64,000 bases of DNA from Sphagnum compactum (Eukaryota): the NCBI GenBank assembly GCA_965153455.1, contig OZ234493.1, positions 27,208,213 through 27,272,212 on the forward strand. The letters are read 5' to 3'. Below, one piece after another: positions 1-25,299 of the stretch. The notes under the pieces are model-generated. The model was not told the DNA's origin, did not search any database, and saw nothing but the letters and a program-made list of their open reading frames with translations. Each line of letters begins with the position of its first letter. Positions within the stretch are counted from its first letter, which is position 1. The translations under genes were made by a program, and so were the position numbers.

Positions 1-315
1 TTGATTTACATGGGAACCATAGTCCTATGGCTCACCATTGTATGTTGAAAGAAACACACACCATTTCTTACATCCAACAAACTAGCCATGTGGATAGAGG
101 GAGATGAAAAAGAAATAGCTTACGCCCAAGCTACTGAAAGCTTGAAGGTGGTTCCTACTAACATTCAACACGGACCAAAGGTTTTATAGAGGTTCAAAGC
201 AGCCCACGAGCCCTTGGTCATAGCTCTGTCTAGTTTTGAGAACATGGAGAGCCATGGCAAATCGATTAAGCCAGTACTTCGTCAGCTAATCACCTGGACA
301 CCCCCTAAGGAAGGG

Positions 316-1250
316 ATTACATTACAAGAGCTCTTTGGTGGTATTGGTATAGGTCTCGAAACCCTACTATAGTCAGGGATGGTGGTTTAGAAGTTTTTAT
401 ACGTAGACATTGATCCTATTGCAAGGCACTTGGCGGCATCGAGAATGATGGAGCTCATAGCCAGATTTCCACAACAGTTTGCAACCACCACATGGAAGGC
501 CAGTTTCACTTTCTTGCCCTTTGACATACAACTAATTCAAAAGAAGCATATGGAATTACTTGGCTCCATGGACCTCATCATTTCAGGTTGTGAGTGTCAA
601 GGATTTGGAGAAGGCTTGAGTGACACAAGATCCGGTCTCTTCACGGACATGGTACGATTGATCATTTAGGCTCAATCCATTTCTCCTACGCTTGATATGT
701 GATTGAAAACACCCCTTCTCAACTTGACCAGAGGGAGAAAGTCCAGGAGCACTACACGCTGGTCAAACATTACCTTAGAAAATTGTTCCTACTCGATGTG
801 GCACAATGCGATTCATGTGCGCACCAGCTGCGCAACTGGTGGACCAACCTTGCACCACTCTCATTTTTGCAGTTGGTTTTGAAATATACCATCAGATTCC
901 CCAACCTACAGGTTTTTCACATATTGGATGATCAGAGCTCCTGCCAACCAGTTACAAGGTAAAAGAAACCTCCTTGGTTTCCTACGAACATAATAGGAAA
1001 ACCAAGAGGTGCTTGGCCCACCTTTGTCTCCTTCCCAGCAACACATGCCTTTCAGGGAGTTGGACCAGGCCTAGTGTATCATCATGCTTCAGCCACTTGG
1101 GATGAACCAAGCCCAAAAGAAAGAGAAAGGGTTATGGGGTTCTAAACTGGCAAACTAGTCACACTAAGGTGACTAGACTGGAGCATAACGCTCTACTGAG
1201 GAGAGGCATGGACCTAAATTCCCTTACATGGTTGTTGGTAACTTGTGTAT
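316..1250 (+). pseudogene. DNMT3-like C5-cytosine DNA methyltransferase domain embedded in the retrotransposon polyprotein (disrupted)
   Basis: Manual translation gives the motifs in canonical order: ITLQELFGGIGIG (I, FxGxG, 328-354), YVDID (II), PFDIQ (III), DLIISGCECQGF (IV, Cys at 595), GLSDTRSGLF (V), YVIENT (VI, ~696-713), LDVAQCDSCAHQLRNWWTNL (VIII), EPSPKERERVMGF (IX, ~1104-1143), TRLEHNALLRRGMDLNSLTWLL (X). Stops at 370, 388, 667 and 960, plus frameshifts. Confidence 0.88.
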
Positions 1251-1554
1251 TCTTTCAAATTTACACAACACCAGCACTGATTCAATCAACTTGCAGTTCT
1301 AGCAATGCGACTACATGGCACCCCAACCAAGTACACTTGCCTATCTTCAACACTTTACACTTCACTCTTAGTGTTGGGGGGGAGGAGGTACCATGTAATT
1401 TGATCAAGTTGTTTCTGATACACTTGGAGGTACATCAACTTCTAAAGAAATAATTACAACCTTCTACGAATCTGCGCAGTTGGATAATGGAGAACCCAAT
1501 ACAGCAAGTTCTTCAACACATTTTCCAACTCCATTCCATGTGTTTCCAACTACC

Positions 1555-2860
1555 CTTTCATTATGGGGAACCAGCTCACCAAGAAGGAGAGAGACTAGGT
1601 CACAGACTTACTAATTAAGTATGAGAATGTGTTCGCATTCTTAATGAAAGACTTAGGTAAGTGTAAGAGCAGAAGTTCTCTATAGACCTTATAGATGAGA
1701 CACCCATCTATCGGAGGACGCATAGGTTGAGCAAGCATGAATGGGAACTGGTAGATGAAAGATGCAAAGAGCTCCATGAGGCTGGTCTCATTCAGCCATC
1801 AAGTTCTAATTTCGCAACCGCAACAGTAATGCCAACAAAGAAGGATTCAGCTGGATTATGGACTGAGAAAGGGATGTGCAAGGATTATAGGCTTTTGAAC
1901 CTGGTTACACCTTAGGACAGGTACCCCATGCCCATCCCTAAAGAACTATTTGATAACATTGGAGACTCAAACATCTTCACAATTGTGGATCTGAAGCAAG
2001 GCTTCAACCAAATTGTGCTCGCTGCGAAGGATCGCAAGAAAACGGCGTTCCATGGAATGAACAAGTTAAGGGAATGGCTTGTGATGCCTTTTGGATTGAA
2101 GAATGCACATGTCTTTTTTCAGCAAGTCATGGACCAAGTTCTCAAAGGGGTAGATTTCTTGAAGTGCTACATAGATGATGTCCTAGTGCATAGCAAGGGA
2201 CTCTTGCAACACTTGGTTCATCTTGAGGAATTATTCAAAAGGCTCCAAGAAGTCGATATGAAGATCCATCCCAAAAAGTGTGAATTTGTTGTCACCTCAA
2301 TAGTCTACCTTGGCCACAAAATTTTGCCAAATGGTATTATGGCTCATTGGGCCAAAGTAGTAGCCATTTTGGAGATGCCCATTCTTACTAATGTTCACTT
2401 TGATGAGCTTCATCGGACTATGTAATTACTACAAGATTTATGTCCAAAACTTCAGTACTATTGTTCATCCTCTTTATGCATTGTTAAAGAAGGATGTTGT
2501 TTGGACATGGAGTGAAGAGGCTCAAGACGCTTTCAACACACTCAAGGAAAAGCTTTCAGAGTTCCCCACTCTAAGAAGACTTGATTTCAACAAGGTCTTC
2601 ATTCTACACACTTACTGGAGTGCTCTTGGTATTGGTGTTATTCTTGGCCAACTTGATGAGGAATGCAAGGAATATGTTATCGCCTACGCATCCCAAAGCA
2701 ACAAGGCTGAGAACAACTACTCTTCATACGAGGGGAAGTGTTTTGTTGTTGTATGGGCCATCATACATTTCAGGCCCTATCTTTATGGCACCAAGTTCAC
2801 TTTGCATACCAACCACCAACCTATCAAGTGGTTGATGACCAACGACAAGCTTATTGGTAA
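1555..2860 (+). pseudogene. Gypsy reverse transcriptase and N-terminal RNase H of the outer element
   Basis: ORF fragments 1727-1915, 1928-2425 and 2391-2860 with standard gypsy RT/RH motifs (YIDD; FILHT..SALGIGVILGQ; YSSYEG.C..VVWAI.HFRPYLYG). Confidence 0.95.
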
Positions 2861-3127
2861 TGTTATGGACCGACTACAAACAAGTGGAGAATTACAAGAC
2901 AAGACAAGCTTTATTGACCCATCAACTAGTGTTGATCTGCTGAAGGGTTGTTCCCTAGACTATCTCCTTTTATAACCCTGAGCCATACTAGTCCCAAAAT
3001 ATCCTAGGCCATGATATTGCCAAAAGTATCCCAAATTATCCTAGGCCATGATATTGCAAAAAGTATCCCAAAATATCCTAGGAAATGACATTGCCAAAAG
3101 TATCCCAAAATATCGTAGGCCATGCCA
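2861..3127 (-). repeat. 3' LTR of the nested chromovirus (267 bp)
   Basis: Direct repeat of 8353-8619 with 8 substitutions by manual alignment; contains about 3.6 copies of a 37-bp unit TCCCAAAATATCCTAGGCCATGATATTGCCAAAAGTA. Confidence 0.97.
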
Positions 3128-6100
3128 TTATCCTCTCCTCAAGCGACATCTTCTAGATGGAGCCGGTTTGTTAGGATACCGTTGGTGAAACCGATTAACT
3201 AAGTCTTGGGCATGAACTAGGTTTCCAGTAGGCTCCCAAGTAGCTTCAGAAGGAGGATAACCTCGCCAAAAGACAAGGTATAAGAACTTTCCACGAATCT
3301 TCTTGGAGTCCAAGACCTCCTGAACTTCAAACTCTTCTTGGCCTTCAATTTCGACTGGAGCTGGGGGTTCTTGATGACGTTCTGGGATCGGGTTTTCAGG
3401 ATAGGGCTCAAGCAGGGAGACATGGAAAACATTGTGGATTTTGAACTGGGGTGGAAGCTCCAACTGGCAAGCCACTAGACCAACCAATTTGGCGATTTTG
3501 AAAGGCCCGAGGCGCTTGTAATCCAACTTGGCACATGGGCGAGTGGTAGCAATGTTCTTTCTGAGAAGCCAGACCTTGTCTCCAACCTTGAAGTTTGGAT
3601 GGTCCTTGCGTCGGCGGTCTGCTTGCTTCTTTTGCCACTCCTCTGTTAGCTTGAGTTCTGCCATAAGGTTCTGTTGAACTTGTCCAAGCCTCGTGGCCCT
3701 TTCTTCAGCCGAGGGGTTTACAGAGTCTCCAAGAATTTCAAGGCTGAACCTGGGATGAAAACCGTAATTGGCAAAGAATGGACTGATCCCGGTCGATGCA
3801 TGTGTTGTGTTATTATAAGCAAACTCTGCTTGAGATAGTAGGTCCAGCCAGTCGTCCTGTTGGTAGTTCACAGTGCAGCGAAGGTATTGCTCGAGTGTCT
3901 GGTTTGTCCGTTCGGTTTGTCCATCTGTCTCAGAGTGGAAAGCTGAAGATAGTCGAATGTCAACTCCAAGAAGCTCGAATACACGATGCCAGAACTTGGA
4001 TGCAAACTAAAGACCTCTGTCGGACACAATTTCCTCGGGGAGTCCATGCAGTCGGACAATCCCGTCTAGAATTAACTAAGCTGTCTCTTTTGCCGTGATT
4101 GACTTGGAACAAGGGGTGAAATGGGCCATTTTGGTGAGTCGATCGACCACAACCAGTATTGAATTATTGGTTCTGACAATAGGGAGGTCTGTGATGAAGT
4201 CCATTGCAATAGATCCCCAAGGTCGGCTAGGAATCGACAGAGGCTGTAGGAGTCCAAACGGGCAATGCCTGGGAGCCTTGGATCGAGCACATGTATCACA
4301 AAACTTGACATACTCCCGTAGCATCTTGTTCATTTTGGGCCACCAATAAGTCCTTGACACTAGTTCGTGAGTCCGTGCCATTCCAAAGTGACCCGCCAGG
4401 GTGTTGTCGTGGCATTCTCTCAGGATTTTTAGGCGTATAGGTCTTTCGGGTACATAAATCAGGTTATTTCGAAGAAGTCCGTCTTGTTGCTCAAACTGAT
4501 CCAAGTCATCACGATTTGGGTTCCTTGGTCGTTGCTGGAGTTCCTTCTTGATGTTGATAGCCCAGGTGTCTTCCTCAGTTGCCATCTTGATGTCCCTGAC
4601 AAGGTATGAATCTGGGAGGGTGCTGATTGTTGCTGCAACTCAAAATTGCTCGGGGTTGAGTAAAGTCTGGTTCTGCTGGCCGTAGGCCTCATCCCCTGCT
4701 CGAAGTTCATATTTTAAACGACGAGATAGCGCGTCAGCTTTCCCTTGCTAGGTGCCGGGTTGAAACTGAATCTCAAAGTCGAAATCAGCTAGGAAGATAG
4801 ACCAGCGTGCCTGGCGACAATTTAAGGTCTGAGTAGTTGTGAAATAAAGGAGATTCTTGATCTATCAGAACTTGGACTCGATGTTGAGCTCCGGCAAGAT
4901 ACGGTCTCCACTGCTCGAATGCCGTGATGATTGCCAGGAGTTCCTTATCGTAGACCTGGTAGTTGATTTCGGCACTGGTTAACTTTCGTGAATAGAAAGC
5001 AACTGGATGCAGCAACCCATTTATTCCAAATTGAGATAGAATAGCTCCCAAGGCAAAATCTGAAACATCCGTTTCCACAATGAATGGCTTGGCAGGATCG
5101 GGATGTATCAGGATGGGTGCAGAAGTGAATGCCATCTTGAGAGTATCAAAAGCAGCCTGGGCCGTTGGATTCCACGAGAAGGGCTTGTCTTTGCAAGTCA
5201 GGGTTATTAACGGTGTTGTGATCTTAGAGTAGCCTTTGATAAACCGACGATAGAAGTTGGCAAACCCTAGGAAGCGTTGAATGTCCTTGACCGAGGATGG
5301 AGTAGCCCAACACTGGATGGTCTCGACCTTTGACTTGTCCATGAAAATGCCATCTGGAGAGATCACGTAGCTGAGGAACGCCACTGAAGATTTGTCGAAT
5401 TCACATTTATCCAACTTGGCGTATAAGCCATGCTCCCGGAGCGTCGCAAGCACCAATCGTACATGTTTGTCGTGGGTTTCCTGGTCCTTGGAAAAGATTA
5501 AAATGTCATCCAAATAGACCACGACAAATTCGTCCATGTAATCCCGGAAGATATCATTTATTAAATGCTGAAAGACTGCGGGTGCATTGGTGAGGCCGAA
5601 GGGCATGACCGTGTATTCGAAGTGGTCGTAGCGTGTGCGGAAAGCTGTCTTCCATTCATCACCGGGGCGAATCCTGAGTAAGTTGTAGGCTCCACGGAGG
5701 TCAAGCTTGGTGAAGATCTTCCCGGTATGTAGTCGATCTAGGAGACCTGAAATCAAGGGCAAGGGATATCGATTCTTTTTGGTGATCTTGTTGAGTCCAC
5801 GATAATCCACACAGAGTCGAAGGGAGCCATCCTTCTTCTTGACAAACAAAATTGGGGCGCCGGCTGAAGACTTGGAATGCTGAATGAACCCCTTGGCAAG
5901 ATTTTCAATAAGGTAATCACGCAAGGCTTGGAGTTCCGGTTCCGATAGGCCATAGATAGGACCAAAGGGTGATGAATGTCCTTCTTCTAGATCAATCGGG
6001 CAGTCATATGGACTATGGGCGGGGAGCTGATCAGCATTAATCTTTTCAAAAACATCAACAAAGTCCTTGTACTTCTCGGGAAGTTTGACAGGTGTTGGTT

Positions 6101-6940
6101 CTGATTGGGGGTTTATGGTGTTGGCTGGGTTGACATGGATGGCGAAGACTTGAAGATTCTTAGCAGCCCGATAGAAAGGGACAGCTCTATCAACGAAGAT
6201 CTGGACAGAGTTGGTTTTCTGGGCAGGATTCTTAACAAGATTCTTGACAGGACAAGGTTTAGTTCTGACCAACCAGGGGTTCTTGACTGCAGGACTTGAC
6301 ATAACAGACTTTTGATAAAACTGGAATTGGTTCCGACCCTCTTTGGGTTCTCGACCACAGGGTTCTTGGCAGGACTGGACAAAGTGTTTTTCTGAGCGTG
6401 GGGTTCTTGAGAGGTGCACCGTTGTGCGCTGAAGGTGAGGGTTCTAGATTGCCAATCAATGATAGGGTTGTGTGCTTCTAGCCAAGGCAGACCAAGGATG
6501 ATGGGATGGTGAAGGGTGTAGATGATGTTGAGAACAATCTTCTCCGTGTGCTTGTCGATACAGAGTTCTAGAGGGGTTGTCTCGTGTGTGATTGCACCAG
6601 AAGCAATGGTTCTCCCATCAATAACCTCTACCGGAACAGGGGTTGACTTCTTGACCATAAGGATGTTGTGTTCGACGACAAATGTTTGGTCGATGAAAGA
6701 AGAGGTGGCGCTGGAGTCCACCAAAGCTGACACTTGTGGTATGTCTTCTGGAATACGAATGATGTCCACATATTGAGTGAAACTGGGACTGGGACCAACA
6801 GCGGAACAGGAGCCTTTGTAAAGGTGGTGTTGGGTGAGATCCAGTCGCACGGCTCCTACTGTGACTGGATGTTCTTGTTTTCCAACTCTTGGGGAGTTTC
6901 CACAGCTTGTAATTGAAGTTTGATAAGCTTTTGAGGGCAC
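3128..6940 (-). pseudogene. pol of the nested chromovirus: aspartic protease, RT, RNase H, integrase, chromodomain (frameshifted)
   Basis: ALVDSSAT (protease); LRLCVDYRGLN, YLDD (RT); ETDVSDFALGAILSQ, DKELLAI (RH); HDNTLAGHFG..CDTC, MDFITDLP (INT); GPF motif; FEVQEVLDSKK..YLVFWRGYPPSEATWEP (chromodomain, ~3180-3335). Confidence 0.96.
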
Positions 6941-7830
6941 TAACGAGCTATATGCCCTGGGTTACCACAGTAAAGACATAGATTGTTTGTCCTTCGGCGA
7001 AGTTTTTCGGCTTCTGTCAAAGATTTAAACTTAGCTGTGTCGATCTACATCAGAGCAGGTCGAAAAGCGGCAGGTCGGGCAACTGGTGTTGTTTGGGGAA
7101 CTAAGGGGAGCGTAGTAGGCCGATTGTTCCAAAGCTGGGCGTTGGAGGTGATTTTCTTTTCCTGACGACGTTCAAACAAACGATTATCGCACCGAATTGC
7201 CTGGGTGATGGCTTCACTGAAGGAAGAAGGGTCTGCGAGTGTCAACAAAAAATCTTGAACATCATCACGAAGCCCACAGCGAAACTGATCAATCAAAGCA
7301 GCTTCTCCCCAATTGACGTCGTAGGCAAGCGGCCTGAATTCTGAGGCGTAGACGATGGCCGAACGTGTCCCTTGCTGGAGGCGACGCAGCTTGTTGGCTG
7401 AAGTCCTGGCCTTGTCACTGTCCCCAAATACTGCTTCAAATTTCGCCATAAAGGCGTTGAAATCTTATAGGAGAGGGGATGATGTTTCCAGGATGGGAGC
7501 AAACCATGCTGCAGCTGTCCCAGTGAGTAGGGTTCCAACGAATCCTACACGAGTGGTGTCATCAAAATAACGACGGGGGTGTAGTTACATGATCAGGCGT
7601 ACCTGGCTGACAAAGCCTCGAAATTTGAGGCGCGTTCCATCAAACTTTTCTGGTAGACTGATCTTGGGCTCTGAGGCGGCCATTGCAAGAACAGGAAGCA
7701 TTCGGGCAGGAGGTGGTGGCTGATTCTGTAGGCGGGTCACCGAGTCTCTAAGCACGGCATTTTTTTGTTGAAGGTGCTGAAGGGCGGCGAGGATTTGAGT
7801 GAGATCGATGTTTGATTCTGAGTTGTCCAT
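6930..7830 (-). pseudogene. gag of the nested chromovirus (disrupted)
   Basis: MDNSESNIDL..., EPKISLPEKFDG, LRRLQQGTRSA..YASEFR, CCHC knuckle LCLYCGNPGHIA..CP near 6935-6985. Confidence 0.9.
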
Positions 7831-7868
7831 GGTGGTAGTTCTCACACTTTTGCGCTTTCAATCTTCAA

Positions 7869-8177
7869 ACTTGAAACTTCAGATGCTTGGATCTCTCTCA
7901 ATACAAGTCCAAATGACATGAAATTTTTCTCACACATATATTCTTATATAATCTATAAGATCACAAAGTTACAGACCCAAAAAAGCTTAAACAAAGGAGA
8001 TATGACCAAAAAACCAGATCTGCACTTGAAACTTCAGATGCTTGGATCTCTCACAATACAAGTCCAAATGACATGAGATTTCTCTCACACATATATTCCT
8101 ATATGATCTATAAGATCACAAAGTTACAAACCCAAAAAAGCTTAAACAAAGGAGATATGACCAAAAAACCAGATCTG
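7869..8177. repeat. Two tandem ~155-bp copies in the 5' leader of the nested chromovirus
   Basis: ACTTGAAACTTCAGATGCTTGGATCTCTC... starts at 7869 and again at 8024; the copies are near-identical. Confidence 0.93.
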
Positions 8178-8352
8178 GCACAGAGTTTTCAAAAGCTCTT
8201 AACTCTCACAAAACATATCCTTTTCTTTTGAAACTTTGAGAGTAGAAGCGTCCTATAGTCTTCTATAACCTTTCCAAGTTTCACTCCAAGATACCTCTAG
8301 CTACTTACTGAAACAACAAAACAAACAAACAAGAAGAAGGAGTAGATCAAAT

Positions 8353-8619
8353 TGTTATGGATCGACTACAAACAAGTGGATAATTACAAGACAAGACAAG
8401 CTTTATTGACCCATCAACTAGTGTTGATCTGCTGAAGGGTTGTTCCCCAGACTATCTCCTTTTATAACCCTGAGCCATACTAGTCCCAAAATATCCTAGG
8501 CCATGATATTGCCAAAAATATCCCAAAATATCCTAGGCCATGATATTGCAAAAAGTATCCCAAAATATCCTAGGACATGACATTGCCAAAAGTATCCCAA
8601 AATATCCTAGGCCATGACA
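8353..8619 (-). repeat. 5' LTR of the nested chromovirus (267 bp)
   Basis: TGTTATGG...CCATGACA termini; minus-strand TATAAAA at 8466-8460 and AATAAA at 8407-8402. Confidence 0.97.
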
Positions 8620-8624
8620 GGTAA

Positions 8625-10300
8625 GTTAGCTCGTTGGGCACTTATACTTCAAGAGTATGAGTTCAAGGTTATTCACCGACCTAGTATTAGACATCAGAAT
8701 GCGAATACCATGTCGCGGAGACCCCTCATTACCTCTAAAGATTTCTTAGAAGCCAGGCAAGAGTTCGACCATATTCCAGCATTACATGTATCTTATACAT
8801 CTAGTTATTTTGCACTATTGTAATGTAACTTGGTTGAACATCCCATTGTGGATATATGAGAGGACTTGGACACTTTGAGGTTCCTTCAGCATGGGGAATA
8901 CCCTCCCCAAGTCACATAAAGTCATCAGGATTGCATACAATAGCGGTCCAAACACTACTCATGGAGGGACAATCACCTTGTCCGATGCTTACCGCAAGGT
9001 GACATAGTGGTTCCTCCACCACATGAACGAACTGATCTTATTCAAAAGGTACACTCAAAGCTTGGACATTTTGGAATTAAGCATACTTATAGCCTTCTTG
9101 CTCCTCATTACCATTGGAGAGGTATGTATGCTCAAGACCGAAATGTCATTGCTAGGTGTGAACAATATGATAGAGTGAGAACTTCCTTCTCCTCTCAACA
9201 GCTCACGCTTTCTCCACTCCCTATTCAGGGCATGTTCTATCGTTGGTCATGTGATTTAGCTAGAGAATTACCACAGACCTCCAGGGGTAATGTCTACATC
9301 ATGATTATGATTGAGCATTTTTCAAAGTGGGTCGAGCTTGTTGCACTGCCCGACAAGTCATCACACAACACTAGTTAGGCTTTCTTACAACGAGTCTTAA
9401 GGAGGTTTGGGGCTTGTGCTGAGTGCCTTACTAATCAAGGATCAGAATTTAGAGGAGAATTCCAATACCTACTTGATCATGCTCTCATTCACCATCGCCG
9501 GACTTCAAAGGATCATCCCCAAGCTGATGGCCTTGCAGAAAGGATGGTTCAGACATGCAAGAAGGGACTTTGGAAGATTTGCCTCATTAGGAACAAAGAG
9601 AGTTAGGACCTGGCCTTACCTTACATCGCCATGGGTTACAAAATGTCCAAACACGCCTCTTTGTCTCATTTCGCTCCTTACTTTCTACTTTTTGGGAGAC
9701 ATCCCATTCCACCCTCTTCCATTGCTACTCAAATGGACCAGGTTGTGGACTTGGACTCCCCAGCCACTTGGGTTAGGGTCCCATCGCAGAGAGGGCTGCT
9801 TTATTTAGGAGGGTTATGCCCATGGCCATGGAGAACTTGTCCATTGCATAACATCAAGACACCTTATGGTATGCACACACATGAGGTGGCAGTTACAAAC
9901 CTAAGGTGAGACAATTTGATGTTAGTGACTTTGTGTATCTCCAGTCGCAACCTAATGATACTCTGGACATTTCTTCTGGTCGCACTATCTTGAGGATTAA
10001 GGCAATCAGGCCTTCAAGTGTGTTAGAGTTGCAAGGAGCTGACGAATGCACAATTTAGGATCACTCTAAAAATTGTGCGCCCTGCCACCTGCCAAACTTG
10101 GATCCTACCATCATCACGTCGACTTGGATTGCTCCACTTGACTATCCATGTTAGATATGTTAGAGGATAGATGATCTTGATTAGATGCTGCTTTGCGATA
10201 ATTATAATGGTGGATAACATCCATTCTACCTCAAGCCAAAGCTCACTCAAATTCCTTCTGACATTTGGTATTATTCATCATGTTCTCCTGTAGCACCTTG
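8625..10300 (+). pseudogene. C-terminal RNase H, DDE integrase and C-terminal PHD finger of the outer element
   Basis: LARWALILQEYEFKVIHRP..HQNANTMSR; HHCC; core integrase (WSCDLA, TNQGSEF, HPQADGLAERMVQT); from 10140: DYPC*IC*RIDDLD*MLLCDNYNGG*HPFYLKPKLTQIPSDIWYYSSC, a decayed C4HC3 PHD. Confidence 0.88.
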
Positions 10301-10350: not shown

Positions 10351-11642
10351 ATACATGAAAATTTTATCTACTAGTTTCCTTTTGTGCATTATATATATAT
10401 ATGTGCGTGCATCTCTTTTTGGTTGATTAGTTTCTACCTTTAACTGGTTTTAGTCTTTTTGTTCAATAGAGTTTACTATGGATTTACACCCTTACGACAT
10501 CGTACGTCACGACAGTTGTCATGCTCGTATGCATGGCCTCATACATGACAGCCAGTTACGAGCATGCCAATCATGCCTTTGGGGTTAATGTACTTTCTTA
10601 AGTTACTTTACGTTATTAGGTGTTTTAGGGTTATGGCTTGTTTAGGGTTTCAACTTTGTTGACGGCTGTATAAAAAGCCAAGTTTTTCCCTTCTCTTGTC
10701 AATTTGTCTATAATTCCTTTATTAGGGAGAGTTTCCTCCATAGTTAAATTGGATTTCTAAATGCTCACGACGGCTATTATACGGCCACCGTTTACATACA
10801 CCATACATGAGAATTTCATCTACCAATTTCTTCTTGTGCATTATATATATACTAGTGTGTACCCGGTGCATAATGCACCCGTTGAGCTCCCTCCCGCCCG
10901 GTCCTTCCCATTGCCCACTCCGGTTCTTTACCCCGTCGACCCCCCCCATCCTTCGCATTTTCCACTCCGATTCTTTAACCCGTTGATCCCCCCCCCCCCC
11001 GTTCCCCTGTTATATATGATTAACTTCCCGCCCCGTGCTGGCCCCCCCCCCCCCCGATGCTGGATGGATTCCAGACATTTCATCCATTTAAGCTGGACGG
11101 ACATTTCATGCATCTCATCATCCGTCTATTATCGGACGGACATTTCATCCATCCCGTCATCCGTCTAATTAAGCCGGACGGACATTTCATGCATCCTGTC
11201 ATCCATCTATTACCGGATGGACATTTCATCCATCCCGTCATCTGGCTTAAATGGGGTGAAAGGAGGACAACATTTGACAAAACATGCATGGAAAGGGTGA
11301 TTATCTACTGTCCAAGTGGAAATTGAACAGTGGACAGTCCACTTTCCACACCAAACACAATTGGCCAAAAAAATCCACTTCCTCTCCCCCCCCTCCCTCC
11401 ACCCACCCCCCAAAACCTCTGTCCCTGTCACCCGCTGCTTCACCGGGTGACATCCCTCCCCCACCCCCCAAAACCTCCATCACAAACACAGAGACTTACT
11501 GAATTAATATATTAAGATGTGTGTGCATCTCTTTTTGGTTGATTAGTTTTTACCTTTGACTGGTTTTAGTCTTTTTGTTTAGAGTTTACTATGGATTTAC
11601 ACCCTTACGACACCGTACGTCACGACACTACACGTCATGACA
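10351..11642 (+). repeat. 3' terminal repeat region of the outer element, A(10351-10514)-B(10517-10802)-A'(10803-10851 + 11518-11642)
   Basis: A ~165-bp direct repeat occurs twice (ATACATGA.AATTT...TTACACCCTTACGACA.CGTACGTCACGACA). B starts TGTCATG and contains TATAAAAAG (~10669). The region ends CATGACA. Confidence 0.75.
10852..11517 (-). mobile_element. Non-autonomous Helitron
   Basis: Minus strand begins A|TCTTAATATATT (11517) and ends with the hairpin GGTGCA-TTA-TGCACC (10865-10879) followed by ...ACACTAG|T (10852). Inserted at an AT dinucleotide with no TSD. The empty site is preserved in repeat copy A (~10390-10415). Confidence 0.88.
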
Positions 11643-11669
11643 AATTAAAAATAATAATATTCATATGAT

Positions 11670-12550
11670 ATTGACCATGGCTAAACTAACTTTGGGTAAA
11701 TTAATGATGACTAAACTAAATTTGACTAAACTAAATTTAACTAAATTAACCATGGTTAAACTTAATTTGATTGACCTAACTATATATGGTTATATCAATG
11801 AAAATTTAAATTAAACATGTTTAAACTATTTAAGAAGCTAAACTAACAATGGCTAAATTAACTAAAAGGTTAAACTAAACATGGTTAAACTAATCATGAT
11901 TAAACTATCCACGTCTAAATTAATTAGAAGGCTAAATTAATTAATTTATGTTTACTTTAACCATGTTAGTTTAGCCATGGTTAATTTAGGCTCTTAAATA
12001 ATTTAACCATGATTAATTTAAATTTCTCATTAGTTTAGCCATGGTTAGTTTAGCCAAAATTAGTTTACCCATCATTGATTTAACTATGGTTAATTTAACT
12101 AAAATTAAAGTAGCCATCATTAGTTTAACCATGGTTAATTTAACCAAATTTAATTTAGCAAAAGTTAATTTAGCCATGGTTAATTTACTCAAATTTAATT
12201 TAGCCATTGTTAATTTAACCATGGTTTGTTTAATCATGGTTAATTTAACAACAACTAATTTAACCAAAGTTAGTTTAACTGTGGTTAGTTTAGCTATGAC
12301 TAGTTTGGTTATGGTTAATTTAATTAGTTTAAGCATGTTAGTTTAATTTCCTAGTTATTTTAGTCATGGTTAGTTTAGCATCCTAACTAATTTAGTCATG
12401 GTTAATTTAGTTAGTTTAGCCATGGTTGGTTTAGCTTCATAATTAGTTTAACCATGATTAGGTTAACCTAAGGTGATTCAACCATTGTTGATTTAACTAA
12501 GGTTTATTTTAGGTTTAGCTTAAGTTAGTGTGAGTTTAGCCTAGTTTAAG
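11670..12550. repeat. AT-rich ~15-bp degenerate minisatellite (TTAACCATGGTTAAT / TTAGCCATGGTTAGT) with an orientation switch near 11940
   Basis: Visible periodicity; it produces the spurious 5-aa-repeat ORFs 12013-12336 and 12041-12346. Confidence 0.85.
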
Positions 12551-15500: not shown

Positions 15501-18500
15501 ACATTGTTGTTGTTCTTCAAATTTTTGTTTTCCAAAAGGTGCATATATTTGAAAATTTTAATTGGGCATCTATTAGTATGGACTTTATTTCTTCTGATAC
15601 ATGGATTTATTACCATTTAATTAATGGTATCATAAAAAATTATAACTTTAACATTGTACAATAAACTATGGGTTTTTTTAATAAAAATGAACCACCATAC
15701 TATGTGTTGCAACACTAGCCTTGGGCTAGTGACCACTTGGCTAAGGCAAGGCAAAAAGAAAAAGAATCAAAAAACGGATAAGGTGAAAAATAAGCTTAAA
15801 CACATTAGAGGAATGAAAGGGAATTTTTTAAAAATTTTAAAATGAACTTCCACTTTGGGAGTTGGGAGTCTTGGAGTGTCATGAATTTTTGTGACAAAAG
15901 TGCAAGGTGTAAATGTTGTCCAAATTAAGAGTTTTGAATACCATTGAAAAGCTCTTGAATTTTAAATATTTAAAGTGAATTTCGTATTTTTCATTTGGTG
16001 TTGTAAGTTAAAAGGTATGGCCAAAAGAAAAGGTCAAAAATCAAATTGGTAATATGATTCCTAACCATCAACCCAAAAATAGTGGTTAAATGACCTTTGA
16101 TGGAAACATACAACATGGAATTGAAAATATCTCATTGAATGTTACAACTTTGTAATTGAAAACTATTTAATAGAAGTTCATATGAGGAAGTTATGAACCC
16201 GCAACATTACAAGATTTATAACTTGGAAAGTCTAAAAAAAAATTAGTCATTTCAATATAGGCCCCACAATAAGGTCCAAATTAAAGTACAGTGAATAAAA
16301 TGGTGGTTTCTACTTAAATTTGGGTAATGAGTCCAAGGTAAGTCCATGACCCAAATTGAATCCATCTTCACTAACCACCTGCATTGTTTGGTTTGTGCAA
16401 ATGACTTGTACATGAAATGTTCATGAACTTGTCATGTCATTTTAATTCTCATTATGGAGCTCCCACACATTCTTTTTTATTTATTTTGTAGAATTAAGGA
16501 ATACGTCGCAAGTGTTTTTTCATTTTACCTTTTCATTATCACCATTCATGGGTTCATCTCCCAAGCCTTGGGAGGAATTTAAAGGTGCATCGCTATACAT
16601 TTATCCATAAGCACAAATGACATCTTTAACAAGGTTCGACAAAATTTGGGTATGGAAACATCCCATCCTTTGCAATAGTCAAAAAGTCAAACATTACATA
16701 GGAGAAAAAAGTCCATAGTGCCAATTTCATTTTTCCATAGTCATGAAATTGATAAAACTCATGGAGGGTTTTCATGCAAGTGGACCATTAGGGGAATTGT
16801 GTCATGTATACCCAAGTGTGGAAAGGGATTCCATGATCTAACCACATTGGTGAACCATGTGGAGAAATATCATGGTCACAAATCCTAGATTTTCAACTTG
16901 GTTCAACATTTAGGGGTTAATTTAAGAAATGTCCTACTATATGTTGAATGCGGTATTTATTTCATTGTTAGGATTTTAGGTCAAGGATTGAAGCAAAACC
17001 AAATGAAATCTTGTGTGTGGAGGAAATTGCTTCATAGTTGATAATAATACAATTGTGTTTTTGCAAAGCAAAGAAGATGTTTGCTTGCTTACTCCATTCC
17101 CAATTGAAACCCAATTTTAATGCTAGCATAAACAAATGAAAGTCTATCACTTTTGTTCATATTGTTGGTTTTACTATTTTTCATTTAAGTTCTTCCATTT
17201 CACCATTTTTTTTTTTCTTTTTCAAGGTTTTTCATTCCATAATCCATAATTCTTTCATTGACTTTAAGAAAAAGTTTTGAACTTAGTTCTAACTTACTTA
17301 ATAGTGAGTACATGGAGATTTCTCCAATTCTCATGAAAATTATTTATGTTCTAATGTCAACTTGAGTTTTCATGCGCACATCTATTGTTGCATTATGGTG
17401 AAGATAGTCACATCTAGTTGATTAATAATATTGTAGAATTTAATCAAATGTAATTTGTAACCAAATTCATAAAATCAATCTGAAACCTTATAAAGATTAA
17501 AAACTTCTTTTCTTTCATTCAAACCAAGCATAAGAGAATGAAACCCATGTAGGGAAAGGAAAACACAAAATTATTACTTATTTATTATTGTTGATTTTTA
17601 CAATCAAAATTTGTAGTTATGTCTTTAATTTGACATTTTTTCCCCCTTCTTGATCATTCCATTTCAAACATCAAAATAGGTTTTCACATTATTCATACAT
17701 TTAGTTAACTTGGAATGATTTAATCAAGTTCAACTCCAAATTGTTAAAATGTGAATACATGATAATGAAATTTATCTTAGTATTTAAAATCCACATTACC
17801 GTTACACCTTAAATATTTTAATCCTTCAAGCTTTAAATCCCTAAACCCCCCACCCCCCCCTCCCCCCAAAACATAAAACTTGAAACATAAACAATAAATC
17901 TATTCAACCAAAAATCCCTAAAAATCTTTAAACTTTGAATTTGAAAAAACTCCCAAATTTATTTGGGCTTTGTTCTTCTCACTACGATTGATGATTATTT
18001 ATTTTCAATTCAACACAATTAACACATAATTATTTATAACAACATATGAAGTGTATATATGCATCATTGTATAATATAACTTTGTACGTATTACATTATT
18101 TAAGTGTTTTTGAACGTTGACAAATATATCTCTAAATGTAACAAAGTTAAGTGAAACCAATAGACAAAATAAACACAATGACAAAGCCCTAACCACAAAG
18201 GTGAAAGTGTGAATCACAAAAGACGTTGAGAGAAATCTTGATAATAACAAAAATAAGACAATAAATAGATGTAGTCATGGTGGTGCAAGCATAAACCATG
18301 CTTTCAAAAGTATAAAAATTATATTGTGCAAGTGTGTAATTCAATATGTTTAAACCAACTACCACAATACTCTTCTACAACACTTCCATGTATGGCCTAG
18401 CTGCATGAGAAATTCATGTTTTATCCATCCTCCCCCCCTAGCGAATGAAGGAGAAACCAATGGGATTCAAGGTTTTGGCTATCTAGTTGGCATGTATTAG

Positions 18501-21500
18501 TCCTTGATGGAAATTGTTCAATTCAATATAGAAGCAAAAAATTGATCAAACATACATAAAAGATAATTGTGGAAGAAAACAAACAACCATTTTCGTTAAG
18601 ATTGATTTCAATCAATGGTGTACTTTGTACACCATTTACTTTGCCTCCTACTTTAATATGTTTCAACATGTAATTCCCAACCACAATTTCTTTTTTCATG
18701 TTAGCAATGCATGCAACACCTTTATCATATTGGAAAACCTTTCTCTTATAACCGTCTTATTTGACCAACATCTAACATCTATTTGGAAAGCCTTCCAAGC
18801 ATGCAAGCTTGGTTACACCAACAACACACCCATTCATCTCTCCAAATCGAATGTAATTTCGAAAACATTGATAAAATAGATGATGGCATACACAAATAAG
18901 GCCAAAGTGTGAAATTTGAAACTAGGATTGCTAAATTTGGTGCATAAAAGGTCTGGAGGCTATTGTTAACAAGGTGTAAATTCCTACAAGTTAAACATTT
19001 CATCTAAAGATCAAGCTCACATATATTGTAGCATGTTGAGGATAATTTTTAAAAAATCAATGAAATACAACTTGGGTTAAAACACATTAATGAAGCCAAG
19101 ATTAAGCATGTCAAATGTCAAAAACTACAATTCAAAATCATAGATCTATTTATGTTTACCCATTTGAAACTATGGTAAGGATGGCAAGTTGTTTACTTTC
19201 GCACATAAATGTCAAAAAACTCAAATTAAAAATCCATTTGGTTCAATTTTAGGTCTTGATATTAATTAAATATTTTTGAAAATGAAGAATCATCATGTTA
19301 AAAAAGGACATTTTTGTAAAAGACTTCAAAAGGACTCATATGATTAAAAAAAACATGATGTGAAAAAAATCTAAATGATAATACTAACATTTTATTCACA
19401 TTCAAAAATTAAGCATCCAAAATTTATTTTTTTGGAATTTTTGGAATTTTGAATTGAAAGTATGTTTTACAATTTCAAGACTCCTTACCACATATAAATG
19501 TCGTGTAATGTACATGAGGTATCAAGTGAAGCTATAGATTATAATATTAAAAAAATGAACTCTGAAATAGTGAACATTCTTTAGTATGACTTGATATTAT
19601 GTTAATTTTATTAAATGAAACACAAAATCTACAAGGAATTTACATCATTTAAAATTTTCATATTTATTCAACAATGATTAAGAAAAATAAATTCTTGAAG
19701 CAATTCTAAGCATTTTTCATTACAAGTTGGAAAAAATCATTTGTATGATAAAGTCATTTTGGGCCAAAAAAACTTGTAGTCTTTATATAAAGTAATGTTT
19801 GGATTTCCTTTGAGTGTGCTTTGTCTAGTTCAAAAACTAAAATCACATTTGTTATGAATTATCAAAAGTGCCATCATCACAAATGATGTTTGAAATGACC
19901 TTGACATTAAACATCACTAGGAATTCTCCTAGCTAAATTGTTTCCGATTAAAGCACATACCCATGGTTGACAATCACATTTTAAAAACACGTTAAGAAGG
20001 AAAATAAACTCATGGACCAAGTAATGTTATAAACTTGAGGTCAACTTCAAATTATCCTAATTTTTTTTGGGATGATCCAAGACCCTACACCACTTGATCC
20101 AATTACAATAGTCAAATCTAGTAAATTACAATTTGTATTAGCTCCATCAACTTTTTCAATTTGAGTGGTTACTTTTTGGATAATTTGCATCCATGTGAGA
20201 AAAATACCTTGGGCTAATTTTTATTTACAAATTACACAAGTAAATGGTTCATACATTCACATTGACATTTGGATTCTGTCTCAAAATCTCAAATTTGACA
20301 TAACCTAGTTGATTTCTTAAGGATTGCAAATTGTGCAACCCTTTTTAGAAGGAAACAAACATAATTTCAAATGGGTAGAAAATTTCATATTTGAGGGTTC
20401 TAAGAATTTGACTATTTTATTATACATGTTGGTAAGAGTATATAAGATATCTTCTACAACTTTAGATTCTACAAAGAACTTTCACATACTATAGTTTAGC
20501 TTTCAAAATGTTTAAGCAAAATTGTTGTAAATCTTAAAAACCAAAATAAATCATCCTATGGTCCATCATTTTCATCCTAGGCCTCAAATTCTTCTACTAT
20601 TCAGTTTCCCTTTTATTCCTTGGAAACATAAAAATGACTAACATCAACAAAGTAGGAAACAAAAGCCCAAGTGAGATGTTCCCTTTAGTGAGGTATCTCC
20701 TCTTATTTCTTATAAATTTCACTTTACAATGACATACCTTAGAAAGATGACTTGACGAAATCTACCACTTGCTTTTCATGTTCATATGACAAAACTTAAC
20801 CTTTCTTTCCAACTCCATAGCCACTATAGAAACTTTGTAAACCCTCTTTGATTTCCTTCGCACATCAACATGAAGTTCTAAAACCACTATTTCACTAACT
20901 TGAACCCTGAAACATTGAAAGTGCATTCCCACAAATGATCAAAATTAGTCACAAACCTTGCATACAATTATCCCTAAGCAACCCTCCTATCCCCACCCAT
21001 GTTCAAAGAACCCTTAAAATTTTGACAAACATACTCCACACCAAAAAAGAAACTCATAACACATAATTCCATATATACATATATTCCTCCTCCTCTCTCT
21101 TCATTCCAACATCACTTCCTTCAATTCAATTGCACAAATAGTTTTGAAACATGCAATTGAAATTTCAAAAAGACACAAAACATAAAAGCAAAAATGAAGA
21201 AACAACATCGAAACTTAATTGAATCAAATCATAAATGATTTTTAAAAAAAAATTCAAAAAACTTCAAATTAACTTCTTCCAAGAAGAAAAGAAAATTTAC
21301 GAAGATTATCATTTTATAATTGGAGGGTTGGCACACACACTTGTTGCAATGCAAATCTAAGCAAGCTTTAAGTTTACTAACAACAAGAACAACAATCCAT
21401 AATTTGAGCTTTGATATGAAGAGGCATAATTTTTTTTTACAAAAAGTCCAAGAATAAACATGTTTTGAAAGAATCCATGTTAAAATCATAAAGTCTAAAA

Positions 21501-22031
21501 ATGTAATCCACAAAGACAAGACTCTAAAATCCCAATGCAGTTGAAGAGCGGGTTATTTTAAATAACAAGGCTTTTAAGGGTTGGTGTGTAAGAGCCTTTG
21601 GGCCGAAGGATTTTCTTTTTGTAACTTGCACTTTTCAAACAAGATGTCCACAATTAAAAGTGTACCATTGTCACTTGAATTAAACAAGAAATCCTTAAAC
21701 CCTAAATCTTAGACTCTTCAAAACACTTCAACCCCCATGCAATTTGAAGTGTGAACATGTGAACCCATGTTTTATTTTTCCCTGATTTTTTTCATAAATA
21801 AAAATTGGAGTGAAAAAGAAAAAAAGAAAAAAGAAAAACCTACCAAGGTGAACCCTAAATTTGCAATAAATTCACAATTTGAAGTGTGAACATATATTGC
21901 AAAGGAGAAAATGCCTGGATAAGGATGGATGATAAATTGGATGAGGACTGGATGAGAATTGATCCTAAACCCTAAACAGTATGGGAGTAGAAGACGAAAG
22001 GAAAGGGTAAAGATTTGCGAAGAAGGGAAAA

Positions 22032-23570
22032 ATGGCGATGGCGGGGCCGATTTGCTCTGCGTCTTCTCTCAATTTTGCAGCGTCGCCTCCTCTACAACTC
22101 CCCGTCTTGCGACCATCCTCAGGCATGACATGACCCACTATTTTCTTTTGCCCCTTTCTCTCTTTCCTCCAACTTAAAACACATCAGAAGTCTTGTGTGT
22201 TTCCTTCCTTGGGTGTTGTGCAAGAAGTTCAGACAAAGAGAAGGTGTGAAGATTGGGTAGTAATGGGTTCTCTTCATTTTAGCGGATTTCGAGGTTTTAT
22301 GAACTTTGAAGATTGATTGTTTTGGCATTTTGATGTCTAGAATTTTTTTTTCTGTGATTGAGTCGGTTGGACAATCTTCAGGAACTACATGTACGAAATG
22401 GGGATGGAAAGGGATATGGTCTTGGCAGCAGCAGCAGCCTCTGCTACACTCAGCTACTCACAAAGTGCCCATCAGTGTGGGCAGAGGGTTTAGGGTTTGC
22501 AGAGCTTCGGAGAAAGGTACATTGCAGGTACCCAATTGATTGTTTCTCGAATCAGAAGAGGATCCTTGGGTAAATTCAGTGCTAATGTGAGAGTTGAGAG
22601 TTGGTCCTTTTTGGGAGCCTTTCTGTTGCTCGGCCCACGAAGCTTATGTTAATTGTTTAGGGTTCTCTTCCTGCTTGCTTGCAGAAAGAGTGACGGAAGC
22701 ACGAAAGTATCAGTTGCAAGCCACAGAGCTTCTAGCAGAGCTTATTAAGTCTGACAATCCACAAACTACAGCACAAACACATGTTGATTCTCTTACTGAA
22801 GACTTCTTCCTGGTTGCTTCCACATATCTCGAAATGGTACACATTTTTTGCCTTTCTTGAGTGTGTCTATTGATCTGTCTCCCATTTGCAATGATACTAG
22901 AATGCGAAGAAGCAATTGAGAACTCAAACACACTCCACAAACCTTCATGCCAATCTTGATTTGGCTTTGCCTTTGAACAGCAACTATAACTGTAATTTTG
23001 CAAATGGTGGAAGCTGAGATAGTAACTCAGATCTTGTGTGGTGCTAGGAAGGCCAAGAAGGAAGGTAATGCAGAGGTCGTGAACAAGATTGAGACTACTC
23101 TGAAAGTTGCCATGGCTGAGAAGAACAAAACTCTCCGCCCAGAAATCCGCCTCTTGAACCAGGTTCAATTCTTGTACTTTCAACTGCTCTTTGTGGCCAA
23201 TGGTCTTCTTGGTTATGTGGGCTTTTCTGCACTGGTATATGGTGATTTGTTTCAGGGTAGTATTTGTCTGTGAAATATATACATGCCCAGGGGCTTTGCA
23301 TTTGTTTATTCTGCTTTCTTTCTGATCCACAGATGGTGGGTGATGCAGCTGCTCACAGACAATGGAGTGCAGGAACGTGCAAAGACTATTCAGAGCAATT
23401 TAGACTATTTAAGGACAGATAGTTACTTTTTCCAACTCCTCAGTCGCATGCTTGCTGATGTGGAGAAGCAACGCAACAACCCCAAGCGCTTGCTGCTCCT
23501 TGCGCAGCTCCGCACCATCAGCAAGGAGACCAAGGAGGCTGCCAAAGCCCTTAAAAAGAGCAGTAATTAA
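22032..23570 (+). CDS. Uncharacterised, probably plastid-targeted helical protein, 5 exons (22032-22122, 22382-22516, 22685-22836, 23052-23162, 23349-23570), 236 aa
   Basis: Phase-consistent splice sites give a 711-nt open frame. N-terminus is Ser/Ala/Pro-rich and transit-peptide-like, ending ...FRVCRASE. Core: LTEDFFLVASTYLEMAKKEGNAEVVNKIETTLKVAMAEKNKTLRPEIRLLNQLL. Intron 1 needs a GC donor. Confidence 0.8.
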
Positions 23571-25299
23571 GAGCCTGGGAGATTCTTGGTGATAATATTT
23601 TCTTCCCACATCAATTTTGCTCTTTTTTCTATAGAAGGGTATATCTGGAATTTATGTGCTGAACTTGAGTGAAGACATTTTTATCATGGTTGTAGAAACC
23701 CAAATCTGACTCTTTAACCCACTCGGTTTCACCAAAGTATGCCAGGTCTAAACCTCAGCGTAAGGTTCTTGTAGACATGTGAGAGGTCTCTGACTGAATT
23801 TGTTAAGTTCATAATCCCATCTTGTATTATGGCAATGTTTCAAAGTTCTGTCACTACCCATGGTGACCAACTCAATTCTCACCTGTTTTGTGTGTCAAAT
23901 CCTCAAGATGATTTTCAGGAGTGGTTGATCAGGTAGTAGATTCTTCTGAATACTTCAACTGGCTGATTATATATTGAACTTGACTGGTTGGTGTATAGTC
24001 TCTGAACTTGCTGTGAGGCCTAAATTTCCAATTGACTGGACCTGAAGTTTTTGCACCCGCACAATGTTAAAATTAGTTTGACTTGGTGACAGCTGCTAGA
24101 GAAGTGCCCCAAAAATTCCTCTGCTGTATAGGGTCCTGACCTCTTGCAGAGTATGCTGCAACATTGTATATGGAAAAAATGAAGAACAGTCTCCTCTTGA
24201 ACACCAACACGTTGCAAGGTTCAACTGGTTGCGAGGTTCAACCAGTTGCGAGTTGGACAGGTAGAGAAGGAAGAAGGTGAAGTACAATATGGAGGAGACC
24301 AAGCAAAGGAACGTTAAATACATGGAGGCTGGATTGTGAGAATACAACACTGGGTCTAATACTGGCATGGCAGTGAAGACCAGGTAGTGTCATGTACACC
24401 ATGCCGCTGTGTTTAATAAAAATGCTGGAGCCTTGGAACCTCTGCAGCAACATATGCTTTAAAGGGTTCACAACGAGAGATAGCTATAAGCAAGAAGATC
24501 AAGGTTTGTTCCACCATCAGAAATTGCTGGAGCAGCTCATCATTTTCTGGTCAGCTCCTTTCTATTTCACAAATGCAAGTGGAGAATCTTCTTGCCCCAG
24601 GTTCAGAGCTGCAGAATTCTTTTAAAGTAAGGTGCCATAGTTTCTGCTCCAATCAATTCTATGGTACTGCATCTGCACTTTGAAGTGTAATAAATCTGAC
24701 TTGTTTTCTGGTGAGCAATTTGACAAAGCTTTTCTTGTGATTTGAGTGGAAAGTTCAATTCTTTGGTTGCAAGGTTTTCTGTCATAGAATCTGAATTCCG
24801 ATCAAGGCAATTTGTTTCTAAGGACAGATGCATTGCAACAGGTTTCCAAGGAGAAGAGGAAGAAGAACAAGAAGAACAAGAAGAAAAATAAATTGTTTTG
24901 TTATAGAATGTGCGCAATAGAATGTGTGCGATGGAGTATGTTTCCTTCAGCAAATCAATCAGTAAGCTACAAAATTGGAGTCCTTCACAGGATCCAACTC
25001 CAAAAAAATTGTCCTGCTGATTGCAGCTGGACCACTCCTGCATCATGTTCAAGCTTATGGAGTAGACAAGCTGACAAAAGCTTGAGCTTGATCCTTGTAG
25101 TTGTCTGGTTGCAACAGGAAGCAAACCTCTGGAGTTTGAATTGATGGGTGCTCAAATCTCCTGCTTAAAGCAAGGATCTTGACATTCATGTTTGCAACAA
25201 TCTCTGTTTTCGATAGTGTTGAATCTCCCTCTTCATGGTTTTGCAACAAGCATTGAAAAGTTCAAAACTCTGATCATCTTGTCATTGAGTTGGGTTGCA

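Follow-up and report, generated by a model that had tools for sequence, protein, structure and literature searches.

A broken moss gypsy element with a DNMT3-type methyltransferase remnant within its polyprotein

The locus and its methyltransferase remnant

We analysed a 64,000-nucleotide stretch of the genome of the moss Sphagnum compactum (contig OZ234493.1, forward strand; hereafter the window). From beyond its first letter to position 11643 it holds what is very probably one old, dead moss copy of a Gypsy-DNMT3 retrotransposon, a member of the bryophyte branch of that family whose cytosine methyltransferase lies inside a single polyprotein. A sequence-only reading of the window had reported C5 methyltransferase motifs in order on the plus strand, directly upstream of a gypsy reverse transcriptase (RT) and with coding sequence on both sides, in a land-plant genome. 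The reading frames and an RVT_1 match confirm the motifs and their position, and positions 1–315 and 1548–1666 match the corresponding flanks in relatives. The land-plant origin is borne out by a host formin exon, which is 89% identical to that of Sphagnum jensenii (Ceratodon 61%, Calypogeia 49%). The features are as follows, with L numbers for related loci and P numbers for homologous proteins.

1–315, plus strand: stretch between protease and methyltransferase (tblastn, residues 16–157 of P0018 against window 3–426, 73–93%)
316–1250, plus strand: remnant of a DNMT3-type C5 cytosine methyltransferase, motifs I–X in order (frames, homology to relatives)
1251–1666, plus strand: linker between methyltransferase and RT, collinear with the linkers of L012 and Closterium P0076
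1667–2422, plus strand: Ty3/gypsy RT (PF00078, RVT_1, 97 bits)
2364–2860, plus strand: RNase H, first part, interrupted by a nested insertion (PF17919 94 bits, PF17917 86 bits)
2861–8619, minus strand: nested chromovirus, not part of the DNMT element (Pfam: gag, protease, RT, RNase H, integrase, chromodomain)
8620–8823, plus strand: RNase H, last part (tblastn of polyproteins)
8848–9900, plus strand: integrase with H2C2 zinc finger and DDE core, decayed (PF17921 51 bits, PF00665; tblastn)
10140–10292, plus strand: PHD finger remnant at the integrase C-terminus (translation; relatives have PF00628 here)
10351–10514, plus strand: terminal repeat A
10519–10800, plus strand: terminal repeat B, whose other copy would be at the element's 5' end, outside the window
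10803–11643 (10803–10851 and 11517–11643), plus strand: terminal repeat A', where the element ends; an unrelated insertion of about 665 nt divides it
41492–42682, plus strand: host gene, protein with a GIL1/IRKI C-terminal domain (Pfam)
43894–49366, minus strand: host gene, formin, with FH2 over several exons and a 967-amino-acid (aa) proline-rich first exon (Pfam)

C5 methyltransferases share a series of named motifs, with the consensus FxGxG in motif I, P-C in IV, ENV in VI and RxR in VIII, followed by IX and X. In the window these are spread over three plus-strand frames. Frame 1 (190–669) contains ELFGGIGIG (motif I), YVDIDP and SGCECQGF (motif IV), frame 3 (696–1145) contains VIENTPS (VI), AHQLRNWWTNL (VIII) and ERERVMGF (IX), and frame 2 (1106–1250) contains TRLEHNALLRRGMD (X). 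Once relatives are included, the homology signal for a methyltransferase is unambiguous. A phmmer search with the N-terminal half of the domain against 1.84 billion representative sequences returned 551 proteins at E<=1e-3, 140 of them at E<=1e-10, with a best value of 3.5e-43. The open relative L012 scores 37.8 bits against PF00145, and members of the family score 22.6–54 bits.

Measured against the open frame of L012, the domain in the window has stops at 370, 388, 667, 960 and 1143; a single base is missing after each of 695 and 1152, and 15 nt are deleted in frame after 603, directly behind motif IV. Over positions 300–2860 there are seven stops in total, five of them in the DNMT domain, and six frameshifting deletions (one base after 695, 1152, 1403, 1514 and 1671; two bases after 2398). 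Motif residues have also changed: a W of motif IV is now C, an R of VIII is Q, and in X an R has become H and a G has become R. The copy is 86–90% identical at the DNA level to copies from metagenomes. Judged by these lesions, it is a broken fossil, incapable of methylating. The sequence-only reading had inferred a lineage of retroelements able to methylate its own cDNA or its target, for self-silencing or host mimicry; the identity of the lineage stands, any such role would be putative, and the ability of this copy falls to its stops, its frameshifts and the nested insertion. CpG depletion did not discriminate as a mark of methylation: the observed/expected ratio is 0.33 over the window as a whole, 0.30–0.37 within the element and 0.21 around the host genes.

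The window begins just 3' of the protease. In the open frame of L026, a protease (DTG, YDVLIGQEALF) precedes the counterpart of window 1–315. No protease domain was found in window 1250–1660, a stretch that corresponds to the linker between DNMT and RT. The interruption of RNase H is sharp: in all four sequencing runs, contig ends that come loose at 2860 resume with sequence from 8625 onwards. The intervening chromovirus has long terminal repeats (LTRs) at 2861–3127 and 8353–8619 (267 nt, 97.0% identical, gap-free) and is flanked by a 5-bp target duplication, GGTAA, at 2856–2860 and 8620–8624; it is much younger than the DNMT element. It looks complete, with RT and RNase H in a 552-aa frame and an SH3-like domain beside its chromodomain. 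Further along, the PHD remnant has several Cys to Tyr changes as well as stops. Long runs of C and of G occur in the insertion within A' (10852–11516), as does a tandem duplication of 81 nt (11083–11244, 88%). A satellite-like array with a 15-nt period (11640–12400, units like TTAGTTTAGCCATGG) adjoins the end of the element and yields 109-aa open frames on both strands.

The polyprotein and its ends in related copies

To follow the domain beyond one decayed copy, metagenome contigs were scanned with a 92-aa frame from the window. At least 598 stretches matched, at least 491 of which were confirmed relatives; 80 loci with 73–80% amino-acid identity were kept and are the source of all locus counts. 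Adjacency was counted in the 55 loci whose sequence extends 1400 nt or more beyond the N-terminal half of the domain. An RT lies behind the DNMT on the same strand in 51 of these 55, at a median spacing of 1012 nt (1001 in the window), an integrase then follows in 33 of 36 and a PHD finger in 21 of 24, in counts that include duplicate assemblies of one region and are not dereplicated. Four loci break the RT adjacency: L021, whose RT is deleted, L031, which has an insertion, L066, which an inverted copy interrupts, and L068. This was the check that the sequence-only reading had proposed for its claim of a domain inside the polyprotein, and its outcome contradicts a one-off host pseudogene.

Because two natural open frames span it without reconstruction, membership of the polyprotein can be regarded as settled. 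The first (L026:3521–6013, 831 aa) runs through two zinc knuckles and the protease (DTG) into the start of the DNMT, and the second (L012:5908–8448, 847 aa) covers the DNMT, the linker, RVT_1 and RNase H. The same order occurs in a charophyte, in the Closterium proteins P0076 (DNMT-RT, 604 aa) and P0329 (protease-DNMT-RT-RNase H). Gag zinc knuckles and the order protease, RT, RNase H, integrase are those of Ty3/gypsy elements. Together, these frames and loci show a predicted polyprotein in the order gag, protease, DNMT3-type methyltransferase, RT, RNase H, integrase and PHD finger.

Clustering 44 full-length stretches at 98.5% identity left 31 distinct copies. By the Nei-Gojobori method, the ratio of nonsynonymous to synonymous substitution rates (dN/dS) over their 465 pairs is 0.37 for both the DNMT and RT, 0.35 for RNase H and 0.44 for the linker, values that skip stops, carry no CpG correction and, among dead copies, mix selection with neutral decay. 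As its dN/dS equals that of RT, the DNMT part appears to have been under constraint as strong as that on the replication enzymes during the family's spread.

Contigs lying on window 1–3200 at 85% likeness or more number 15,728–25,420 per DNA run, in runs from three organisms, which fits a high-copy family, contig depth not being copy number. No run contains more than 0.37 of the sampled words, so none was taken as the source of the window. One moss metatranscriptome run gave 329 such contigs, which together cover all 30 bins; one of them, 400 nt long, spans the DNMT-RT linker (1370–1766). This is a hint of transcription only, as an RNA run may carry DNA and contigs are silent on RNA level, strand and ends. 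In two loci (L066:6472–9093 and L080:3988–4619) the DNMT is interrupted by another family member in inverted orientation, reading PHD, integrase, RNase H and RT on the minus strand; the family has inserted into itself there.

The element had been taken for an LTR retrotransposon, and its ends do not support plain LTRs. In all seven distinct loci with both ends visible (L003, L012, L024, L033, L045, L060 and L076), the 5' end is B alone and the 3' end is A-B-A. Split direct repeats (B...A-B-A) stand in place of the two complete direct LTRs of Ty3/gypsy elements. In L012, B is 292 nt long with copies 92% identical, and A is 185 nt long with copies 94% identical; the 3' end in the window reads A-B-A'. 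Such a split-direct-repeat layout is that of Ngaro/PAT-type DIRS elements, and B...A-B-A is equivalent to a two-LTR circle opened within one LTR. A tyrosine recombinase domain appeared in no domain scan of the window or its relatives, where Integrase_H2C2 and rve are present instead.

Enzyme type, family tree and rival explanations

The sequence-only reading had called the domain DNMT3-like and not permuted as in DRM, and phmmer, a profile and Foldseek all agree with it. Among solved structures, the range covered by the subfamily comparison, phmmer with the L012 domain finds DNMT3A at 4.4e-9, DNMT3C and DNMT3B at about 1e-7, tobacco DRM at 3.4e-4 and HhaI at 7e-3, and neither DNMT1 nor CMT at E<=1. 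A profile of 26 sequences gives 1.6e-25 for DNMT3A, 4.4e-14 for DRM, 1.6e-9 for HhaI and about 1e-5 for DNMT2. The AlphaFold model of the domain is confident (predicted local distance difference test, pLDDT, 92.1; predicted template modelling score, pTM, 0.91), and the 31 Foldseek matches to the PDB listed down to rank 50 are all DNMT3A, DNMT3B or DNMT3C (best E 2.5e-20; template modelling score 0.81–0.85). In sequence and predicted fold, then, the domain appears closer to DNMT3 than to DNMT1, CMT, DRM, DNMT2 or the bacterial enzymes, by wide margins. The alignment of L012 with DNMT3A is collinear (6–193 to 6–174 and 280–312 to 236–268). DRM, the second-best family by sequence and by profile, is circularly permuted and matches only as such, the moss N-terminal half falling on DRM residues 228–353 in the C-terminal part of the chain; the moss motif order is, unlike that of DRM, not permuted.

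The moss domain shares with animal DNMT3A, DNMT3B and DNMT3C the same order of motifs I–X and the DNMT3 pattern in VIII–X, and these enzymes are its best matches in sequence, profile and fold. It is about 21–22% identical to them and differs in several respects. The moss chain is without PWWP or ADD and has a separate PHD finger behind the integrase, there are about 45 extra residues between motifs VIII and IX, with lower model confidence around 240–260, and the catalytic loop reads E-C-Q in place of P-C-N. L012 has all the catalytic motifs in sequence, and the window has them in the same order in degraded form; the Cys is kept, and the Pro before it is Glu in the lineage, giving E-C-Q and not P-C-Q. 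GWECQGFS occurs in 17 of 32 moss copies, and the listed variants keep the Glu. Pro is found in Marchantia and in some other members, and Pro and Glu alternate within both clades of the family tree described below.

That reading had also placed the element in a lineage common to charophyte algae and land plants, and the named relatives and the tree uphold this for charophytes and other bryophytes. The streptophyte members are Calypogeia fissa P0290 (71% identical, protease-DNMT) and P0306, Sphagnum magellanicum P0303, S. fallax P0332, Klebsormidium nitens P0331, Closterium, and Marchantia polymorpha P0308 (Mp_8g17980), P0311 (MARPO_0008s0049) and P0316 (MARPO_0084s0073); the chlorophyte members come from Scenedesmus, Monoraphidium, Chromochloris and Haematococcus. 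The Marchantia models are 961–1275 aa long, and one has been named automatically 'DNA (cytosine-5)...' in UniRef. None of them is MpDNMT3b, the host gene, which the available source text gives as Mp5g09290. Additional domains occur here and there: P0040 combines a Dam adenine methylase with the DNMT, P0090 and P0111 have a G-patch, and in P0313 a Tudor domain follows the PHD finger.

Two domain orders exist. Among 25 long homologues scanned, 22 are RT/RNase H/integrase polyproteins (integrase in 21, and a PHD finger as well in 18 of those 21), and in these 22 the DNMT lies between RNase H and integrase, not ahead of RT. The chlorophyte-type order, as in P0024 and P0116, is RT-RH-DNMT-INT-PHD (RH, RNase H; INT, integrase), against PR-DNMT-RT-RH-INT-PHD (PR, protease) in the streptophyte type, as in L012, P0076 and P0329. 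The 117 proteins with most of the domain comprise 60 RH-DNMT-INT, 34 PR-DNMT and/or DNMT-RT and 23 DNMT only. A FastTree of 116 family domains, rooted only at the midpoint, divides them into two clades with a support of 96 on the separating branch. Clade 1 has all 33 PR-DNMT-RT rows, one stray RH-DNMT-INT row (P0131) and all 11 named streptophyte rows; clade 2 has 59 RH-DNMT-INT rows and every one of the 6 named chlorophyte rows. Domain order changes in two steps on this tree (one if starred branches alone are counted), and each bryophyte has members of two separate sub-lineages. P0331 (KFL_000540020) falls within the 44-row streptophyte-type clade, support 96. Collectively, these data show that the moss family makes up the bryophyte branch of Gypsy-DNMT3 elements in streptophytes, a group first reported from Klebsormidium, with chlorophytes as a sister branch. 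The family is an old one that spans green plants and green algae; its PHD finger is constant, and its domains come in two orders.

Several observations weigh against the account of the window as one dead copy of this family with an enzyme of this kind inside its polyprotein. Taken alone, the window copy is a borderline methyltransferase by homology: its fragments score 21.9 and 20.4 bits against PF00145 (E 1.4e-4 and 4e-4) at a cut-off of 22, the C-terminal half of its domain has no match in the Pfam scan, and phmmer of the fragments against the PDB gives weak matches only (E 0.065–0.8), all but one to DNMT3. Among the 31 distinct copies, L012 alone is open over DNMT, RT and RNase H, the others having 2–22 stops. 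A search for close relatives at least 1484 aa long, word-limited and therefore weak as evidence, found none, its best match being 41% identical; nor was an intact full-length moss copy seen. The duplicate assemblies within the locus counts, the mixture behind the dN/dS values and the midpoint root of the tree belong on the same side. So does the Glu that the moss lineage has ahead of the catalytic Cys in place of the usual Pro, as an E-C-Q loop could mean altered or lost catalysis.

Could the methyltransferase be a host DNMT3 pseudogene or retrocopy that merely adjoins a gypsy element? The window copy is pseudogenic and below the Pfam cut-off, and mosses possess host DNMT3 genes. Against this, the domain adjoins RT at the same spacing in 51 of 55 loci, natural open frames cross both the PR-DNMT and the DNMT-RT boundary, introns are absent and dN/dS equals that of RT; a single segmental duplication is countered by 31 distinct copies at 87–95% identity. 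We consider this reading extremely improbable. Scarcely more credible is a composite of two copies, in which an RT-RH-DNMT-INT copy truncated after its DNMT happened to land beside a copy without one, so that the DNMT-RT order is accidental here. Most of the long homologues first scanned do place the DNMT between RNase H and integrase, the integrase in the window lies directly behind RNase H, and window 1320–1548 is without homology to proteins of the RH-DNMT-INT type. We rejected the idea, as PR-DNMT-RT is the rule across the moss loci and is also found in Closterium P0076 and P0329, and as L012 has DNMT, linker and RT in one open frame collinear with window 316–2860.

Two further alternatives accept the family and question its biochemistry or its history. 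A conserved domain might have ceased to be a DNA C5 methyltransferase and serve as a DNA- or S-adenosylmethionine-binding module, a DNMT2-like RNA methyltransferase or a DNMT3L-like regulator. Glu replaces the near-universal Pro in moss, Calypogeia, Closterium and some chlorophyte members, and a place beside RT would suit RNA or RNA/DNA hybrids. On the other hand, the family as a whole retains the catalytic Cys, the ENx Glu of motif VI, the RxR of motif VIII and also motifs I, IX and X, the predicted model superposes on active DNMT3A/B, the alternation of Pro and Glu in both clades suggests a tolerant position, and retrotransposon DNMTs methylated CG de novo according to the available text of de Mendoza et al. 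(2018; PMC5890265). Such repurposing is unlikely on balance, though it deserves to be taken seriously. Somewhat less probable still is horizontal transfer into or among bryophytes in place of vertical persistence into land plants. The DNMT of Calypogeia P0290 is 71% identical to that of the moss, when the host formin exons of the window and Calypogeia are only 49% identical, and two separate sub-lineages occur in each bryophyte; yet formin FH2 is a single gene and an uncalibrated yardstick, and the division of the tree into a streptophyte and a chlorophyte clade tracks the taxonomy of the hosts.

Proposed function and known systems

If the family is read as a Gypsy-DNMT3 lineage, what might its methyltransferase do? 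We lean slightly towards the domain being, in intact members, an active de novo C5 methyltransferase made within Gag-Pol, because it has been under constraint equal to that of RT. With less confidence, by analogy, its target may be DNA newly made by the element itself, as cDNA or as a fresh insertion. Self-methylation is our leading model because the available text of PMC5890265, in which retrotransposon DNMTs methylate CG de novo, suggests it for retrotranscribed DNA. Made as part of Gag-Pol between protease and RT, the domain would be in the particle where cDNA forms. The CG-methylating retrotransposon enzymes of that study are presumably those of Symbiodinium.

The PHD finger could add a second link to chromatin. 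Its nearest solved relatives are KDM5 PHD1, KMT2C/D, WSTF, DPF2/3, ATXR5, KAT6A, UHRF1, CHD4, BAZ2A/B, AIRE and PHF21A. Most of these bind H3 tails without K4 methylation, and none of the classic H3K4me3 readers ranked near the top. Because the chromodomains of chromoviruses offer an analogy, we propose that the finger quite possibly, though not probably, tethers integrase to chromatin without H3K4 methylation. If so, a reader and a writer would sit in one polyprotein, echoing the ADD and methyltransferase of DNMT3.

A broader picture is more speculative, and we think it unlikely. An ancient green-lineage family would have combined a DNMT3 writer with a PHD reader of the unmodified-H3K4 type, the writer would have moved from between RNase H and integrase to between protease and RT in streptophytes, the family would have been mobile in bryophytes until recently or still be so, and DNMT3 encoded by transposable elements (TEs) would add to de novo methylation in land plants. 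Recent or ongoing mobility is read from the open frames of 831–847 aa, the moss metatranscriptome contigs and the gene-annotated copies in Marchantia.

A TE with its own cytosine methyltransferase inverts the usual picture of a host methylating its transposons. The Gypsy-DNMT3 lineage is abundant in Sphagnum-like moss and present in liverworts including Marchantia polymorpha, so the acquisition is no oddity of Klebsormidium; the kind extends to bryophytes, and the question of what a transposon gains from DNMT3 now reaches transformable land plants with well-studied methylomes. It also matters for annotation: bryophyte gene sets list such frames as 'hypothetical proteins' or, automatically, as 'DNA (cytosine-5)-methyltransferase', and they could pass for host DNMT3 in surveys.

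The literature searched describes TE-borne DNMTs from dinoflagellates and Klebsormidium and, more recently, dual-methylase elements in Cymbomonas and Euglena. A 2026 preprint, in the portion available, names 'streptophytes (Gypsy-DNMT3)' and reports other TE-borne combinations of DNMT and Dam. In this literature, mostly without subscription journals, Repbase-type catalogues and supplements, we found no report of Gypsy-DNMT3 in land plants, and no mention of a PHD finger on Gypsy-DNMT3 or of chlorophyte Gypsy-DNMT3. The novelty implied by the sequence-only reading was nevertheless overstated, as a gypsy-DNMT3 element of Klebsormidium with the same repeat structure had been published (PMC5890265).

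This element, KnitGypsy-Dnmt3 of Klebsormidium nitens (de Mendoza et al., 2018; PMC5890265), is the closest known system. As far as the available text describes it, it shares with the moss family an intron-less, non-permuted DNMT3-type domain inside the Pol of a gypsy-type element, seen for the moss family in the frames of L012 and L026, a DIRS-like repeat arrangement in place of two LTRs (Fig. 4c legend) and a DNMT under purifying selection. The K. nitens protein P0331 groups in the same DNMT clade as the moss element; we infer that it is a copy of KnitGypsy-Dnmt3, and on that identity the moss domain groups with the TE-type DNMT3 of K. nitens. The domain order of KnitGypsy-Dnmt3 is probably that of P0326 (gag-PR-DNMT), a close relative of P0331. 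The moss family differs in its host and in its at least 491 relatives in metagenome contigs. The Klebsormidium paper, in its available text, calls the acquisition specific to the K. nitens lineage, as against the chlorophytes, Zygnematophyceae, liverworts and mosses here, and gives a Ka/Ks below 0.2, compared with 0.37 here; the PHD finger present in the moss family has 0 occurrences in that text.

Chromoviruses likewise fuse a chromatin reader to the C-terminus of a DDE integrase. Theirs is a chromodomain, where the DNMT element has a PHD finger, and the DNMT element has in addition a methyltransferase and split-direct-repeat ends. The ends themselves recall DIRS, Ngaro and PAT-like elements and SymbioDIRS-DNMT3, which have split direct repeats (A1 ... 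B1-A2-B2) and some of which carry DNMT3 or Dam. Those elements use a tyrosine recombinase instead of a DDE integrase, whereas the moss family has a protease and an integrase with H2C2 finger and DDE core.

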